In this document: piece after piece, positions 9,516 through 34,622 of the stretch
Numbering within the stretch: position 1 is the stretch's first letter
Layout of the letters: each line of letters begins with the position of its first letter
From: Terriglobia bacterium
GTDB taxonomy: Bacteria; Acidobacteriota; Terriglobia; JAJPHL01; JAPKYU01
Direction: 5' to 3'
NCBI GenBank assembly: GCA_965223005.1
Contig: CBDCVK010000010.1
Location: 672,001 to 736,000, forward strand
Length of the DNA: 64,000 bases
The notes under the pieces: model-generated
Seen by the model: the letters and a program-made list of their open reading frames with translations, nothing else
What the model was told of the DNA's origin: nothing
The model's database searches: none
Program-made: the position numbers and the translations under genes

Positions 9516-10160
9516 ATGGAATGGGTGATGGAACAGGGGCTTAGCGTAGCCACCCAGCCTGCGGTCCAGCCGGAAGTAGCGGTCATCCGCCGGGCCCAAA
9601 AAGGCGATCAGGAAGCCTTCCGCGAGATCGTGGAACGCTACCAGGCCAAGGTGTTCTCCATCATCCGCGGCGTTGTACGTAACCGGAATGATGCGGAAGA
9701 TATTGCCCAGCAAGTATTTACCAAGATATATTTCTCCCTGCCCAAGTCTGATTTTCGCTCCGCGCTAGTCACCTGGATCTACAAGATCACGGTGAACGAG
9801 TGCTATGACTACTTGCGGAAGCAAAAGGTACGGCCTCTGACCTTCGAAGCCGACTTGAACGAGAATGACCTGCGCCGCATTGATAATATGGAGGACCGCG
9901 GCCGAAATCGGGCGAAAGACCTGGATCGCCGCGCCGAACTTCGAGAATACGTGACGAAACTCCTTGACAAGCTCTCCGAGGAGGAGCGGTACTTGTTGTT
10001 TATGAAAGAAATGGAGGGGTATGCGGTCGAGGAGCTGGCCCGCATGGTCTCGATGAACGAGAATACTGTTAAAGTGAAGCTGTTTCGGGCCCGGCAAAAA
10101 TTGGTGAAAGCCGCCAAGAAATCCGGAATGCTGCGTGGCGGCCGACCTCCAGTTTTCTAA
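9516..10160 (+). CDS. ECF-family RNA polymerase sigma factor
   Basis: GDQEAFREIVERY, DAEDIAQQVF, TWIYKITVN and region 4 ENTVKVKLFRARQKL. Confidence 0.93.
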   Translation: MEWVMEQGLSVATQPAVQPEVAVIRRAQKGDQEAFREIVERYQAKVFSIIRGVVRNRNDAEDIAQQVFTKIYFSLPKSDFRSALVTWIYKITVNECYDYLRKQKVRPLTFEADLNENDLRRIDNMEDRGRNRAKDLDRRAELREYVTKLLDKLSEEERYLLFMKEMEGYAVEELARMVSMNENTVKVKLFRARQKLVKAAKKSGMLRGGRPPVF

Positions 10161-26564: not shown

Positions 26565-28326
<1,762 letters not shown>

Positions 28327-28334
<8 letters not shown>

Positions 28335-28857
28335 TCCAAAGAACAAGGTCCCAAGCCCGAAGTCGAAATCCGCACCCCGCAATCCGGAATCTATAATTGT
28401 TCTGGCTGTGGGCCTCCCCGGGTCAGGAAAATCCACCTGGTTCGCCCGACGCCGGGTCCAGCCGCTTTCCAGCGATCTGCTGCGCCAGCTGCTGCTCGAT
28501 GACGCCACCGACCAGTCGCAGCAGACCGCGATTTTCTCGGCACTGCGCTGGCTTCTGCGGCTGCGCCTAGGACTGGGGCGGCGCGTTCATTGTGTGGATG
28601 CCACCAACCTGAACCGCCGGGAGCGCCGGGGCTATTTCCGCCTGGCCGCATTGTTCGACTGCCGTGTAGACGCGGTCTTCTTCGATGTGCCGCTCGACGT
28701 TTGCCGGGAGCGCAACGCCCGCCGGGGACGCCGCGTGCCGCGGGAGGTCATGCTACGCATGGTGCGCAAGCTGCGCCCGCCCACCTACGCAGAGGGCTTT
28801 CGCCGGATCACCGTCGTGAACGCCTCCGGGCGCGCCCGTCCGCTGCCCCGCCGCTAG
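28327..28857 (+). CDS. P-loop kinase (AAA_33 / polynucleotide-kinase-like)
   Basis: VGLPGSGKST Walker A, SSDLLR, VDATN..R and CRERNARR motifs. Start uncertain; TTG overlapping the fadE end was chosen. Confidence 0.82.
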
Positions 28858-28958: not shown

Positions 28959-29443
28959 ATGTTTTCCCGGCTGCAATTCGCCCAGTTCCGTTTGCGACTG
29001 GCGCCGCAGCAGACGCTGTTCATGCCCGCTCAGAACAAGGGCAACGTCTTGCGCGGTGCGCTCGGCACCATGCTGCGCACGCTTTGCTGCCATCCAGAGT
29101 GTCCGGGGGCACGCCACTGCAACTTGCGCGCCACCTGCCCCTACGCTCAGGTGTTTGAGCCAGCACCACCAGCTGGCTCCTCCGCCCTGTCCAATTACCA
29201 GGCCATTCCTCGCCCCTTTGTTATTCGGCCGCCGGTAACGAAACAGAATGGCGTCATTGAGATTGACGAAAAAACTCAATATGGGCCGGGAGAAACTCTG
29301 GAATTTGGCCTGATTCTGGTGGGCCGCATCACCGAACTCTTGCCCCATTTCGTGCTCAGCTTCGACCGGCTAGCCGAAGCCGGCCTCGGGCTCAACCGCG
29401 CCCGCTGTCGCCTGGAGCGCGTCGAGCAGCTGGCTCCACTTAG
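28959..29443 (+). pseudogene. cas6: Cas6-family RAMP endoribonuclease, N-terminal part (interrupted)
   Basis: GNVLRGALG, Cys cluster CCxxxC..C..CPY, PRPFVIRPP, LEFGLILVG and GLG motifs typical of the Cys-cluster Cas6 (DUF2276-type) family. Confidence 0.85.
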
Positions 29444-29549
29444 CCCGGATTTCCTTTATGAACTATCGGCGGCAACCTTCTGAATGACTCCAACGTCAGT
29501 ATTGATGCGGGTTCCAGCATCAACATTGCCTTCCGGAGGTGTACACCGA

Positions 29550-30878
29550 ATGGGTGAGAGCCAAAAACAGGCGTTTCAACTGTCATTCAACCGGTTTCTG
29601 CGGGTCACATTTCAGGGATCGCGAATCACTTCCGACGGCGGTCTGATTCTGGTGCGCGAGTTGGACGAACGTTTGGGGTTCGGCGAACTTATCGAACAGC
29701 ACTTGATCGACTCTCGGGGGAAGAACACTCGGTTGCCCTTCGCTGACTTGCTGCGGCAGTCCATCTACAGCCGCTTGGCAGGATACGAAGACGTCAACGA
29801 CGCCGAGCGGCTTTCCCAAGATCCGACGTTCCGGCTGATCGGTTCGGAGAAGATCTGGGAACGTGGCGCAGCCCTGACTTCCCGGTTACAGTCGTTCGAG
29901 ACAGAACTGCTGACGCAAGACGAGAACCTTGCTGGTTTGGCAGCGATCAACCGGGATTTGATCGCCAGGGCGGAAGCTATGGATGCGCCGCGCCGGGTGG
30001 TGCTGGACATGGACAGCACCGAGATCCCGGTCTACGGCGAACAGGAGCAGAGCGCCTACAACGGGCATTTCGAGTCGAGTTGCTATCACCCGTTGTTGCT
30101 GTTCAGTCGCGAGGGTGACTGTCTGGCGGCCAAGCTGCGACCCGGCAACGTGCACAGCGCCGAGGATTGGGAAGAACTTCTCCTGCCAGAGATCGAACGG
30201 CAGCAGAAGCTGGGCAAGGAAGTGGTGTTTCGCGCCGACGCCGCCTTCGCCAAGCCGGAGATCTACGACGCACTGGAGGAGCGGGACGTGAAGTATGCGA
30301 TTCGCATCCCGGCCAACGACAGTCTGGAGAGGGACATCGCGGAGTTGTTGACGCGGCCAGTGGGGCGACCGAGCCACAAGCCGGTGGTCTGGTACAAGAG
30401 CTTTCTCTACCAGGCAGCCAGTTGGAAAAAGGCGCGGCGGGTGGTGGCGAAGGTGGAGTTCCACTTTGGCGAACTGTTCCCTCGCGTGGGGTTCATCGTC
30501 ACCAATCTGGAGACCGACAGCCGGGCGGTGGTCCGGTTCTACAACAAGCGGGGCACCGCAGAGCAATGGATCAAGGAAGGCAAGCAGGCGGTAAAGATGA
30601 CCCGGCTGAGTTGCCATCGGTTTCGGTCGAACGAGGTGCGCCTATGGCTGAGCCTGATCGCCTACAACTTGGGAAACCTGTGGCGGCGGCTGGTGCTACC
30701 GAAGAGGATCAACAACTGGTCGCTGACGAGTTTGCAGCAGCGGCTGGTGAAAACGGGAGGACGGCTGGTGAAACATGCGCGATATTACTGGCTTTTGCTG
30801 GCCGAAGGGCACTTGAGCCGGAGGCTGTTCAGCAGCATGCTGCGAACGATCTCGGCACTGCCGCTGCCAGACGGCTAG
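29550..30878 (+). CDS. IS1380-family DDE transposase
   Basis: ITSDGGLIL, GYEDVND, VLDMDST, YNGHF..YHPL, LRPGNVHSA, RADAAF and FYNKRGTAEQWIKEGK motifs. GGAGGT RBS before ATG 29550. Confidence 0.93.
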   Translation: MGESQKQAFQLSFNRFLRVTFQGSRITSDGGLILVRELDERLGFGELIEQHLIDSRGKNTRLPFADLLRQSIYSRLAGYEDVNDAERLSQDPTFRLIGSEKIWERGAALTSRLQSFETELLTQDENLAGLAAINRDLIARAEAMDAPRRVVLDMDSTEIPVYGEQEQSAYNGHFESSCYHPLLLFSREGDCLAAKLRPGNVHSAEDWEELLLPEIERQQKLGKEVVFRADAAFAKPEIYDALEERDVKYAIRIPANDSLERDIAELLTRPVGRPSHKPVVWYKSFLYQAASWKKARRVVAKVEFHFGELFPRVGFIVTNLETDSRAVVRFYNKRGTAEQWIKEGKQAVKMTRLSCHRFRSNEVRLWLSLIAYNLGNLWRRLVLPKRINNWSLTSLQQRLVKTGGRLVKHARYYWLLLAEGHLSRRLFSSMLRTISALPLPDG

Positions 30879-31037
30879 CGACCCAGGAGAGAGGGTAATT
30901 TTAGGTGCTCAGAAGTGGTCGGGCCGGACAAGTGTCAGCGGCGAGGCAGGCTGGGCAGGCGAAACCCGCACAGCGACTCCGAAGAACAGCCAAAATGTGC
31001 CGCACTACGACCTCAAAGAGGCCCGGGCGATTTGCGA

Positions 31038-31066
31038 TTGACACGACAGGGTAAGAGGCATAGGTT
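31038..31066 (+). promoter_or_regulatory. Outward-facing sigma-70-like promoter inside the IS right end (TTGACA-N17-TAGGTT)
   Basis: Perfect -35, 17-bp spacer, and a -10 keeping T-A...T. Ends 37 bp inside the IS end. Confidence 0.55.
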
Positions 31067-31163
31067 TTCGGGTGAAGGGGAAGCTCAAAATGGAAATTCC
31101 GGGTAAGAGATTAGACCCTGTTTCACTTGACGGACTAAGTCCGCAAGCCAGAAGGGGTGAACC

Positions 31164-31973
31164 ATGAGTTTGTCGAAGATCGTTGCTCTGGGCACCGGGA
31201 TTTACCATCACTACGGCCTGGAAGCTGCACTGAAAGGGATTCATCGGGCCGGGTGCGGCTATGTGGAGATGGCAGCCAACCCACCACATGCAGAACACGT
31301 TTCCCTCGACATGGACGACGCCGCAGTCGAGGCCCTGCTGGCCAAGCTTCAGCAGTACCGTCTCAAGGTCGTGGCTCTAAACGGCAACATCGGCATGATG
31401 AGGAAAGGCGACGTCGAGCGATCCAAGAAACTCATCAGCCTTGCTCCAAAGCTTGGCGCCGGGGTTGTGGTGAATACACTCGGCGGAGCCGGCCTGGAAG
31501 AGGACTTACCCCCGTTTCTGGCCAACGTCGGGGAGGTGGCGGACCATGCCCGAAAAAACGGTGTCACGATTGGCCTGGAAGTGCACGGCAAGCACACTGC
31601 CAACGGCAAACTCGCTTTGGCCACGGTTCGCGCGGTCAATGACCCAAACGTTAAGATCAACTACGATACCGCCAACTGCATCTATTTCGGCGATACCTTG
31701 CCCTACGAAGACCTGCCGGTTGCTGTCCCCGAAATGGCGCACATCCATCTGAAGGATAAGATCGGCGGCAAGGGAGTATGGAACTTTCCGCCCATAGGAA
31801 TGGGTGAAATTGACTTCGAAAGGGTGCTCAACATCTTGGACGACGGAGGCTATCGAGGTGCGCTGAGCGTGGAGATCGAGTTCGACGACCGGGGCTGGCC
31901 TCCTGTTGCCGAGGTGGACGAGGCTGCAAGCTCCGCCTATCGCACCCTCATGCGATTGCTGGAGACGCACTAG
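31164..31973 (+). CDS. Sugar-phosphate isomerase/epimerase (xylose-isomerase-like TIM barrel), cargo gene
   Basis: Metal-ligand motifs IGLEVH, INYDTAN, HIHLKD, G.GEIDF and LSVEIE. Confidence 0.88.
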   Translation: MSLSKIVALGTGIYHHYGLEAALKGIHRAGCGYVEMAANPPHAEHVSLDMDDAAVEALLAKLQQYRLKVVALNGNIGMMRKGDVERSKKLISLAPKLGAGVVVNTLGGAGLEEDLPPFLANVGEVADHARKNGVTIGLEVHGKHTANGKLALATVRAVNDPNVKINYDTANCIYFGDTLPYEDLPVAVPEMAHIHLKDKIGGKGVWNFPPIGMGEIDFERVLNILDDGGYRGALSVEIEFDDRGWPPVAEVDEAASSAYRTLMRLLETH

Positions 31974-32004
31974 CAGGAGCTGAGGGTTTCTGCCCGCGGC
32001 CGTG

Positions 32005-32168
32005 TCAGGCGCTGAGGTTCTTGAACGACTCCTTCATCTTGCGAAACTCAGCTAGGATACCCTTGAATTGCTTCTTATGCGCTTTCATCTGCAAGCCACG
32101 CTCCCGATTTTGGTCGTCGGTCCATTCAACGAGAATGAGGTGCTGACGCGATTTGTGGAGGATTCCGA
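32005..32168 (-). pseudogene. 3' fragment of an unknown donor-locus gene, truncated at the unit end
   Basis: Open frame GILHKSRQHLILVEWTDDQNRERGLQMKAHKKQFKGILAEFRKMKESFKNLSA* runs from the junction to a stop at 32005. It is blocked by TAA inside the target duplication. Confidence 0.55.
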
Positions 32169-32173
32169 CTTAG

Positions 32174-32660
32174 CCAATTCGCAATTCAGAATCCGCAATC
32201 GCAAGTCCTGGTAAGGTTCCTCACCCCGACCGATCTGGTTTTCGAGGAGAAGCAGGTGCGCGAGCCCGAGTTCCATCACCTCGTGCGTCGCCTGCGGGAC
32301 CGGTTGAACGCGCTGGCTACTTTTTACTGCGGCGGTCCGTTGCAGTTGGACTTCCAGGGTCTGGCTAAGCGCGCCCGGGATGTGGGCTGCCTTCGCCGGG
32401 ACTTGCACTGGGAGGAGCGCCAGCGCCGCTCGGCCCGCACCGGCCGCCGCCACTCAATCGGCGGCTTCCTCGGCGAATCCCTCTTCGGCGCCCCGACCGC
32501 CGACGCCTTTGCCGAATTCCTTCCTCTGCTCCACCTCGGCCAGTACCTCCACGTGGGCAAACATGCGGTGTGGGGCAACGGCTGGTACGAAATACAGGGT
32601 AGAGAATTCTCGACCGAAGCCCAGCCGGAAACTCAACGCAAGGCCGCGCTGAGGGTATAA
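32174..32660 (+). pseudogene. cas6: Cas6-family endoribonuclease, C-terminal part (interrupted)
   Basis: VRFLTPT, PEFHHLVRRLRDRL, RRSART, IGGFLG and the Gly-rich loop HVGKHAVWGNGWY. Confidence 0.85.
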
Positions 32661-32713
32661 TAGTGCCCGAAGAAGAGGGGACTGAACTTGCCGGGAATGT
32701 GTTGTACTGACTT

Positions 32714-32788
32714 TGGATTGTTTCCAACGCGCGGACGGCTCAGGCAGCTGACAGCTGACAGGTGAAGACGCGCGTTGGACGCAATCCA
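32714..32788. repeat. 20-bp-arm inverted repeat downstream of cas6
   Basis: tggattgtttccaacgcgcg / cgcgcgttggacgcaatcca (18/20). The loop contains cagctga cagctga caggtga. Confidence 0.8.
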
Positions 32789-32918
32789 TCCTCTCCCAGA
32801 GAACGCCCACTCCAAGGTTTACAGTTGCAATGAGGAAGTCGGCCCCTGCCGCGGGATGGCCTGCCGCGCGCCTGGCACAAGCAAGAGCGGGTGAAGGGGA
32901 CTACCAGACTGGACAGGG

Positions 32919-34622
<1,704 letters not shown>

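Follow-up and report, generated by a model that had tools for sequence, protein, structure and literature searches.

The stretch of DNA analysed here, positions 672001-736000 (64 kb; hereafter the window) of contig C10 of genome G000, carried an orphan cas6 gene that was split in two by an IS1380-family transposition unit and was followed by a single CRISPR-repeat-like unit, part of a conserved CRISPR RNA (crRNA)-like element lying between cas6 and the convergent rpoD gene. The explanation that we favour, at roughly even chances, is that this lone crRNA-like RNA is matured by Cas6 and may then serve a Csm module encoded elsewhere in the genome as its fixed guide, and that the insertion abolishes this maturation.

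Genome G000, placed by related records in Terriglobia, Acidobacteriota, comprised 3.24 Mb in 10 contigs (96% complete; 61.5% G+C). It was compared with G001 and G003 of the same genus (g1), with G004 of a different genus, and with further genomes of families f1 and f2, which belong to one order. The survey of the Cas6 family covered 80 loci, with contigs taken as one genome per species, and the public sequencing runs used were X1 and X2 (RNA libraries) and X5 and X6 (DNA runs from two studies). Coordinates are those of the window unless prefixed by another handle; those of the main features are collected in Table 1.

The split cas6 gene

The reading frame of cas6 stayed open across the junction, base 29442 being the first base of the split codon, and the coding pieces 28959-29441 and 32172-32657 together encoded 323 aa. 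Searched with tblastn, both parts mapped onto a single unbroken open reading frame (ORF) of 323 codons in G001 (L027), where the two segments abutted with no gap or overlap (N part ending at 9723 and C part beginning at 9722) and displayed identities of 91% over residues 1-161 and 94% for the C part; the Cas6 proteins of G000 and G001 differed at 24 of 323 residues. The reconstituted protein retained 34/34 invariant and 38/38 near-invariant positions of a 58-sequence family alignment: C44, C60, H288, G290, G296, and G298 were invariant among the 58 homologs, C54 was at least 90% conserved, and the Gly-rich loop of G000 Cas6 read HVGKHAVWGNG. The insertion was confirmed as the sole lesion of cas6, with nothing missing. 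A first-pass annotation, made from the letters of the window, had proposed a 323-aa reconstituted ORF from ATG 28959 with an N-terminal Cys cluster and a C-terminal Gly-rich loop, free of lesions other than a mobile element that had knocked it out; the collinear G001 ORF bore out the reconstruction, the Cys cluster and the loop proved real and conserved in the 58 homologs, the G001 comparison and all 72 conserved positions upheld the single lesion, and the mobile element turned out to be an IS1380 unit with a second genomic copy.

The proposed Cas6 identity was likewise sustained by the PF10040 search, to which a PADLOC match and the fold of an ortholog model were added. PF10040 (CRISPR_Cas6) matched the C part (E = 5e-15; 56.4 bits, cut-off 25) and the intact G001 ortholog (E = 2.4e-14; 54.3 bits, cut-off 25), and the PADLOC Cas6 model PDLC01477 gave a full-length match to the intact ortholog (E = 3.7e-74). 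No NCBIfam model matched the Cas6 ortholog, and the N part alone had no match in the Pfam copy used; homologs carried precomputed PF27225 over the same region. In a large protein collection, 657 proteins were matched at E <= 0.001, and among the matches listed the PF27225 plus PF10040 architecture was found, some proteins being named Cas6 by their source. A PDB sequence search with Cas6 returned nothing significant (best E = 0.4), so the tie to solved Cas6 proteins rests on the fold. An AlphaFold2 prediction for the G001 ortholog, which used an alignment of 58 homologs, had a mean predicted local distance difference test (pLDDT) score of 89.3 and a predicted TM-score (pTM) of 0.86, and contained the two-domain Cas6 (ferredoxin-like/RRM) fold with the C-terminal Gly-rich loop. 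Foldseek comparison of this model to PDB gave 110 matches at E <= 0.001, the top 10 all being Cas6: the best was TTHB231 (E = 1.7e-13), followed by Sulfolobus, Marinomonas, Streptococcus, and Pyrococcus Cas6. Profile matches and modelled fold together make a solid case for a genuine Cas6 family protein with predicted endoribonuclease activity.

The inserted IS1380 unit

The insertion in cas6 was recent and polymorphic in nature, because the uninterrupted allele was present in public DNA runs: (i) an 864-nt contig of X6 (depth 30, no mismatches) joined 29437 to 32168 and skipped 2730 bases and (ii) a contig of X5 (depth 13) contained the same 29437>32168 joint with only 30 letters on its shorter side. 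Eight letters at this empty-site joint fit either side. The net insertion was 2730 bp, with borders that were ambiguous within the 8-nt sequence ACTTAGCC present on both sides and were compatible with a 5-nt target duplication ACTTA (29438-29442 and 32168-32172).

The unit was composed of an insertion sequence (IS) proper and a passenger segment. The IS1380 assignment combined a DDE transposase of this family (NCBIfam transpos_IS1380, 372.4 bits, cut-off 180; Pfam DDE_Tnp_1_4, E = 1e-118), similarity between the unit's ends, which shared CCCGGA..TTTCC..TGA as read from the sequence, and a joint compatible with a 5-bp duplication. Partial genome copies at 79-84% identity covered the IS part 29443-31102 only, and in the public runs the IS proper had 10 to 100 times the depth of the flanks, with contigs stopping at 31102. 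The passenger ORF matched Pfam AP_endonuc_2 (E = 8.5e-36); its segment had about twice the depth of the flanks and an IS-free, 99% identical copy on contig C8 (L004). Positions 29443-32170 recurred, at a reported identity of 100%, 470 kb away on the same contig as the unit (G000:C10:1171422-1174158; L002); at the ends compared, the two copies diverged after 32170.

ISEcp1, a member of the IS1380 family, mobilizes adjacent DNA by one-ended transposition. From its two copies and depth profiles, the unit in cas6 looks like one moved in the same way: it likewise united an IS1380 transposase with adjacent DNA and had a weak surrogate right end and a likely 5-bp duplication. It differed from ISEcp1 in its passenger, a sugar-isomerase-like TIM-barrel gene, and in its host, an environmental Acidobacterium; the mechanism is here read from copies and depth. 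In addition, one X5 contig joined 31102 back to 29440 with 12 other letters between, which may reflect tandem IS copies or a circular transposition intermediate.

Orphan status, synteny, and selection

The genome search that the first-pass annotation had suggested agreed with an orphan gene: G000 contained a single PF10040 gene (this cas6), no Cas1 (best match E = 0.12), and no CRISPR array of at least three repeats in its assembly, and none of its nine two-copy direct repeats resembled the Cas6 family repeat. DevR-type Cas7 of type I was absent from all five genomes searched with that profile, G000 included. No cas1/2, effector gene, or array lay within the window, just as first described; for Cas1 and arrays the absence held genome-wide, but for effectors it ended at the window, outside which a Csm module was found (see below).

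The named flanks, a P-loop kinase and convergent rpoD, were also correct, and the suggested synteny comparison showed the kinase-cas6-rpoD order to be conserved: thiolase, acyl-CoA dehydrogenase, kinase, cas6, convergent rpoD, and dnaG were arranged alike in G001 and G003, and the kinase-cas6 pair was also kept in G004, another genus. A full cas operon at this site in relatives, which would have marked the gene as a deletion remnant, was not found; G001, G003, and G004 had no cas operon there. The pairwise ratio of nonsynonymous to synonymous substitutions (dN/dS) was 0.17-0.23 for cas6, similar to the values of rpoD (0.18) and the kinase (0.18-0.34), and dS reached 0.68; the orphan cas6 is under purifying selection.

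A quick maximum-likelihood tree of 73 rows was built, from which 9 of the 80 loci were omitted (stop in the matched stretch or less than 250 aa). The orphan Cas6 proteins (G000, G001, and copies in G004, G006, and G010) constituted a single clade with a Shimodaira-Hasegawa-like approximate likelihood-ratio test (SH-aLRT) value of 99; its sister group (SH-aLRT 97) was composed of 20 Acidobacteriota Cas6, 17 of them beside cas genes. Within the order, PF10040 was found in 5/6 genomes of f1 and 3/4 of f2, nearly the distribution of Cas10. Because no operon stood at the site in relatives and the distant family lay mostly in type I-like operons, cas6 is most likely what remained of a former type I-like operon and has been preserved by selection ever since.

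Two kinds of candidates were rejected. Cas1 signals in G001 and G003 were not accepted as genes, being fragments of 41-42 residues in 77-aa frames (G003:C2:1262196-1262321 and 1601762-1601887, with equal scores; G001:C3:432293-432415); these may be what is left of a lost adaptation module, or may belong to a repeated element. Matches to Cas3-like_C_2 were not accepted as Cas3, being generic helicases; the control was positive in 14/14 genomes.

The wider Cas6 family and its CRISPR repeat

An array was present within the fetched flank in 28/80 loci of the Cas6 family, and 48/80 had at least one match to the cas proteins of L042; together with L113, in which a family member lay beside Cas10- and Csm3-like genes, cas genes were found in 49/80. 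L042 displayed the order cas6, large unassigned gene, cas7 (DevR), cas5, cas3, cas1, cas2, cas4, and array, which is type I-B-like. One 37-nt repeat type, composed of a C-rich/G-rich stem of 4-5 bp, an 8-nt loop ending AGA or GGA, and an ACTGAAA-type tail, was shared by 23 of the 26 arrays examined beside a family Cas6. In related type I-like Acidobacteria loci, a lone repeat or a two-repeat mini-array was located right after cas6, apart from the main array (Table 1); by analogy, these lone units look like regulatory crRNA-like units of type I-B.

A lone repeat and an RNA element after cas6

A weight matrix derived from the last 25 nt of 23 family repeats was scored at 6.48 million G000 positions on both strands. 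The top score was 26.8 bits, compared to 17.1 for the runner-up (background mean -47.5, sd 11.5), and its site, 32664-32688, lay on the cas6 strand 4 nt past the cas6 stop. The corresponding sites scored 26.8 in G001, 26.1 in G003, and 25.6 in G004, and the other 9 of 12 loci scanned, including Csm loci and loci of more distant homologs, contained no score above 14. Moreover, a degenerate 14-nt repeat-tail motif occurred exactly once each in G000, G001, and G003, at the cas6-rpoD locus. Pattern matches in G005 (C141) and G006 (C73) were rejected as chance, their repeat-matrix scores being below 10.

BLAST with the 141-nt region identified it in 5/11 genomes of the order (G000, G001, G003, G004, and G006); a sixth match of 21 nt in G008 was taken for chance. 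A pattern scan of metagenome contigs yielded six further sequences from a more distant lineage (rpoD about 78% identical). All 11 sequences displayed the same order of a GGTATAAT-type box, a small hairpin, the handle, a stretch of about 26 nt, and a long hairpin, and this occurrence in five genomes and six metagenome contigs places the lone element among conserved standalone repeat-like elements. The GGTATAAT box (variants TACAAT and TATACT) lay 4-6 nt ahead of the hairpin in 11/11 sequences; a promoter scan at the element found no -35/-10 pair and no terminator. The small hairpin had an invariant stem and a variable 5' loop half, as in canonical repeats, and the handle-like part, ACTGAACT in G000, was ACTGAnnT or ACCGAAGT across the 11 sequences.

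The predicted fold of the 135-nt RNA had a z of -2.8. In the alignment of the long hairpin, 99% of cells paired, and five pairs varied only between G-C or U-A and G.U; no pair was changed on both sides, so that covariation proper was absent. Read on the opposite strand, its 18 G.U cells would turn into A.C mismatches; the structure is therefore consistent with a cas6-strand RNA and not with the rpoD mRNA. Linkage to the rpoD 3' end was found in 10/11 sequences, the G004 contig ending before rpoD. Rfam recognized no family over 32500-33000 (best match at chance level, E = 1.5 or worse). A blastn-short search for a trans target with the 45 nt after the handle gave only exact matches of 10-12 nt and one 16-nt match with a mismatch.

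Of the sampled words, no more than 5-8% were present in the four RNA runs that the run search found. In X1 and X2, short RNA-library contigs derived from relatives aligned to parts of cas6 with 5 and 10 mismatches, respectively, and showed no transcript ends. One X2 contig lacked 147 bases that separate the long hairpin from the rpoD end (32787-32935), an arrangement that matches relatives such as G006, in which the long hairpin lies a few bases past the rpoD stop.

An array-less Csm module elsewhere in the genome

Each of the five genomes searched with a RAMP profile yielded a single matching gene; in G000, a Csm1-Csm2-Csm3-Csm4 operon was recognized by NCBIfam models (bits/cut-off: Csm1 201.2/170, Csm2 35/30.6, Csm3 133/90, and Csm4 90.9/55). 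Csm1/Cas10 (530 aa) aligned to positions 230-689 of a 753-position model and, because the match begins at position 230, lacks the HD domain; Csm2 bore an N-terminal Cys-rich extension. The Cas10 GGDD motif was present in G000, G001, G006, and G009 and was replaced in G003 (same genus as G000), G005, G008, and G010, with G007 giving no alignment over the motif. The Asp of the Csm3 motif, which we take to be the catalytic one, was kept in seven genomes, namely all in which the motif was found. Since the RNA-cleavage motif of Csm3 is kept and the cyclase motif of Cas10 has been lost repeatedly, these motifs suggest a Csm complex whose remaining capacity is the RNA-guided binding or cutting of RNA.

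Of 10 further genomes of the order, nine contained the Csm module, with Cas10 orthologs in 5/6 genomes of f1 and 4/4 of f2; 30 genomes of other families of the class gave one weak Cas10 match only. It adjoined thiI in genus g1 and in G006 and appears to be vertically inherited next to thiI across the order. Nine genomes were free of any array, cas6, or repeat-matrix match up to 10 kb from the module; the 10 neighbouring ORFs scanned contained no Csm5, Csm6, or other cyclic oligoadenylate sensor, and Csx1_HEPN had no match in the G000 genome.

The PilZ protein, integrase, and methyltransferase beside the G000 Csm genes were rejected as parts of the module, being unconserved in G001 and G003. 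A tRNA-like fragment, an integrase gene, and a gene for a 756-aa protein with C-terminal PilZ followed the Csm operon in G000 only (L116 5064-8905), a region that is probably an integrated island. Separately, csm3 and csm4, adjacent in G000, were split by unrelated genes in G001 and G003 (L117 8317-9480; L118 9867-12703), the G001 gene between them being a 387-aa ORF.

Neighbouring kinase and feature coordinates

The product of the kinase gene upstream of cas6 matched NCBIfam bacter_Pnkp (E = 8.4e-25) over model positions 6-157 only and under the model cut-off. The gene adjoined cas6 in G001, G003, and G004, and this adjacency was confined to genera g1 and g2. A kinase resembling a 5'-OH RNA kinase beside an enzyme of a class leaving 5'-OH ends is a suggestive pairing.

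Table 1. Features of the cas6 region, the Csm operon, and lone repeats in related loci
Feature	Position	Strand	Details
P-loop kinase with similarity to polynucleotide kinase (kinase domain)	28267-28857	+	Pfam AAA_33, E = 2e-23
cas6, N-terminal part, 161 codons, Cys cluster	28959-29441	+	ATG at 28959; ORF
Inserted transposition unit	29443-32167	+	Second copy in genome; empty-site joint 29437>32168 in X5 and X6
IS1380-family insertion sequence proper	29443-31102	+	1.66 kb; transposase ORF 29484-30878, 464 aa
Passenger segment, 1.07 kb	31103-32167	+	Xylose-isomerase-like TIM-barrel ORF 31164-31973, 269 aa
cas6, C-terminal part, 162 codons plus stop, Gly-rich loop	32172-32660	+	TAA stop 32658-32660
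GGTATAAT box, perfect -10 hexamer overlapping the cas6 stop	32654-32661	+	Alignment
Lone CRISPR-repeat-like unit	32664-32688	+	CCC/GGGG stem, 8-nt loop (32666-32680); handle-like ACTGAACT (32681-32688)
Conserved single-stranded spacer-like stretch, 26 nt	32689-32714	+	11-sequence alignment
Long hairpin, stems of 7 and 11 pairs, variable loop	32715-32787	+	Separates the lone unit from the rpoD 3' end
rpoD, 567 aa, convergent to cas6	32919-34622	-	RNA element at rpoD 3' end in sequences found
Csm1-Csm2-Csm3-Csm4 operon	G000:C10:1109906-1113952 (L116 8906-12952)	-	407 kb from cas6, outside the window
Lone repeats or mini-arrays after cas6 in related loci	L043 11260; L051 9538; L112 11273; L096 3659, 3719; L108 3488, 3559, 4671		

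Favoured explanation and its alternatives

Under the favoured explanation, Cas6 would have outlived, in one Terriglobia lineage, the type I-like cas operon that it once served, and it would now cut the lone hairpin at its 3' base; the cleavage product would be composed of an 8-nt crRNA-type 5' handle, the conserved 26-nt single strand, and a protective long 3' hairpin. The most plausible user of this product would be the array-less, HD-less Csm1-4 module. No other protein set of the genome is known to use such handles, and Csm with one hard-wired guide could perform plain RNA-guided RNA binding or cutting. The 2.73-kb IS1380 unit splitting cas6 should then stop the maturation of the RNA in the G000 strain. 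Both cleavage of the lone hairpin by Cas6 and loading of the product into Csm are steps that we infer, the former with about one chance in two and the latter with less; the coupling of Cas6, RNA element, Csm, and any target is put forward as a hypothesis.

Several observations weigh against this explanation. Cas6 was disrupted by an IS in a wild strain and is thus dispensable at least in the short term. The RNA element was tied more tightly to rpoD than to cas6: it lay directly 3' of cas6 in g1, 2.5 kb off behind two TPR genes in G004, and on a different small contig from cas6 in G006, and 6/6 metagenome contigs with the element had no cas6 within about 2 kb. The GGTATAAT box, if a promoter, would place the first transcribed base at the 5' arm of the hairpin or within it. 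The stem of the small hairpin never varied and thus offered no covariation; it had 3 C in G000, 4 C in the intact X6 allele, and 5 C in G001 and G003, and the shorter G000 stem may be due to decay, strain variation, or homopolymer error. Only one repeat was present, so that the 3' end of the RNA cannot arise canonically, and the 26-nt stretch had no target in the genome beyond the antisense strand in situ. The RNA-library cover of the element, whose transcription and cleavage are predicted, was thin and came from relatives. The Csm module was also found in sister family f2, in which G007 and G008 lacked the element after rpoD, and the co-occurrence of module and element is confounded by shared descent. 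Finally, arrays were possibly lost at the breaks between the 10 contigs.

It is somewhat unlikely, yet has to be weighed seriously, that cas6 and the last repeat are functionless leftovers of a deleted type I-like locus, that the IS is a decay step, and that the sequence past the hairpin is kept for rpoD, as 3' untranslated region (UTR) or terminator, and not for Cas6. Such decay would accord with the setting of the family, most of whose members with enough flank sit in cas operons (48/80 matching L042 cas proteins), and with lone repeats beside cas6 being common in type I loci, both in those surveyed here and according to PMC10120712; it would also accord with an element that stands at the rpoD 3' end with or without a nearby cas6, an IS-broken allele that persists in nature, and the shorter G000 stem. 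Against a functionless gene stand dN/dS of 0.17-0.23 over dS up to 0.68, the retention of 72/72 conserved family positions, and an orphan clade covering at least four genera; moreover, the hairpin stem and handle were kept while loop bases changed, with G.U changes that favour a cas6-strand RNA over the rpoD mRNA strand.

A domesticated CRISPR system, in which the orphan Cas6 and a single rpoD-3'-end transcript would give a fixed crRNA arming Csm to act on host RNA, is unlikely; with the same low probability, the cyclase would be dispensable, the role would not be adaptive immunity, and the one full target seen would be read-through or antisense RNA of the sigma-70 gene. Less probable again is that Cas6 works without Csm as a regulator on the lone hairpin, for instance at the 3' end of its own mRNA or on an antisense to the rpoD transcript. 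The hairpin of g1 does lie within the cas6 3' UTR, the element is linked to the rpoD 3' end in nearly all aligned sequences, the 26-nt stretch is fully complementary only to the opposite strand in situ, and the adjacent polynucleotide-kinase-like kinase (two genera) could act on 5'-OH ends; however, a crRNA-type handle unneeded for such a role has been kept, and the kinase adjacency is confined to g1 and g2. The first-pass annotation had offered two roles, a trans-acting processor for distant arrays or a Cas6 repurposed for a non-CRISPR RNA. The second was half right: repurposing is retained, but the likely substrate is a CRISPR-repeat-derived hairpin directly downstream. The first, service to arrays elsewhere in the genome, has become very improbable. 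Array-less type III loci taking crRNAs in trans are described in PMC12669027, and a 10-contig, 96% complete assembly could be missing an array; against this, G000 had no array of at least three repeats, no family-like repeat among the nine two-copy repeats, and no Cas1, and the repeat 3' motif was confined to one occurrence, at the cas6 locus, in each of G000, G001 (4 contigs), and G003 (2 contigs).

Relation to known systems

Standalone Cas6 genes are known, as is Cas6 acting in trans. Compared to the PF10040-type Cas6 TTHB231 of Thermus thermophilus (PDB 4c9d and 4c98), the protein described here shared the fold (Foldseek TM 0.56/0.67) and the Gly-rich loop, and its family members likewise occurred beside arrays with a hairpin repeat; it differed in its identity of about 16% to solved Cas6 and in an extra N-terminal Cys-rich loop (C44, C54, and C60 conserved). 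Unlike a typical Cas6, the G000 copy had no array or cas operon and only one repeat-like hairpin.

Standalone repeat-like elements and mini-arrays giving regulatory crRNA-like RNAs have been reported (PMC10120712, 10.1101/2023.03.10.532045, and PMC8501985). Like the mini-arrays of CreR/CreA type, the element described here is a repeat-like unit next to cas6, conserved in relatives, with a fixed spacer-like part. CreR/CreA-type systems have a resident type I or V-A effector and a promoter target in the same locus; in contrast, DevR-type Cas7 was missing from the five genomes, only one repeat was present, and no partial target was found, the genome containing no complement past chance 12-mers to match the promoter complementarity of CreR/CreA. 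PMC10120712 describes repeat-like sequences as enriched near cas6 in type I-B loci and regards mini-arrays of type III as degraded and without function.

Type III variants of reduced composition that have neither arrays nor adaptation genes (III-F, III-G, III-H, and others) have been proposed to take external crRNA (PMC12669027). The Csm module resembled them in having no array or cas1/2, few subunits, and a loss of Cas10 function; III-G and III-H keep HD and lose the cyclase, whereas the module here had no HD and was III-A-like by profile, and G000 seems to offer it no array, only one fixed unit. A literature search, with supplements outside its scope, found no description of a selected, family-wide orphan cas6 combined with one conserved repeat unit and a minimal Csm in the absence of array and adaptation genes.

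Significance

The usual assumption for array-less type III modules is that they borrow crRNAs from other arrays, and single repeats in the vicinity of type III loci have been written off as products of decay. Of all CRISPR components, one family of soil Acidobacteria appears to have retained only a selected cas6, one conserved repeat-plus-spacer-like RNA, and a minimal Csm, and the IS-broken and intact cas6 alleles in the same kind of samples constitute a ready-made natural comparison. If these parts do not cooperate, they would present a clean example of a cas gene and a last repeat outliving their operon; if they do, they would represent a natural class 1 effector reduced to a single inherited guide, which bears on the exaptation of CRISPR systems for host functions.

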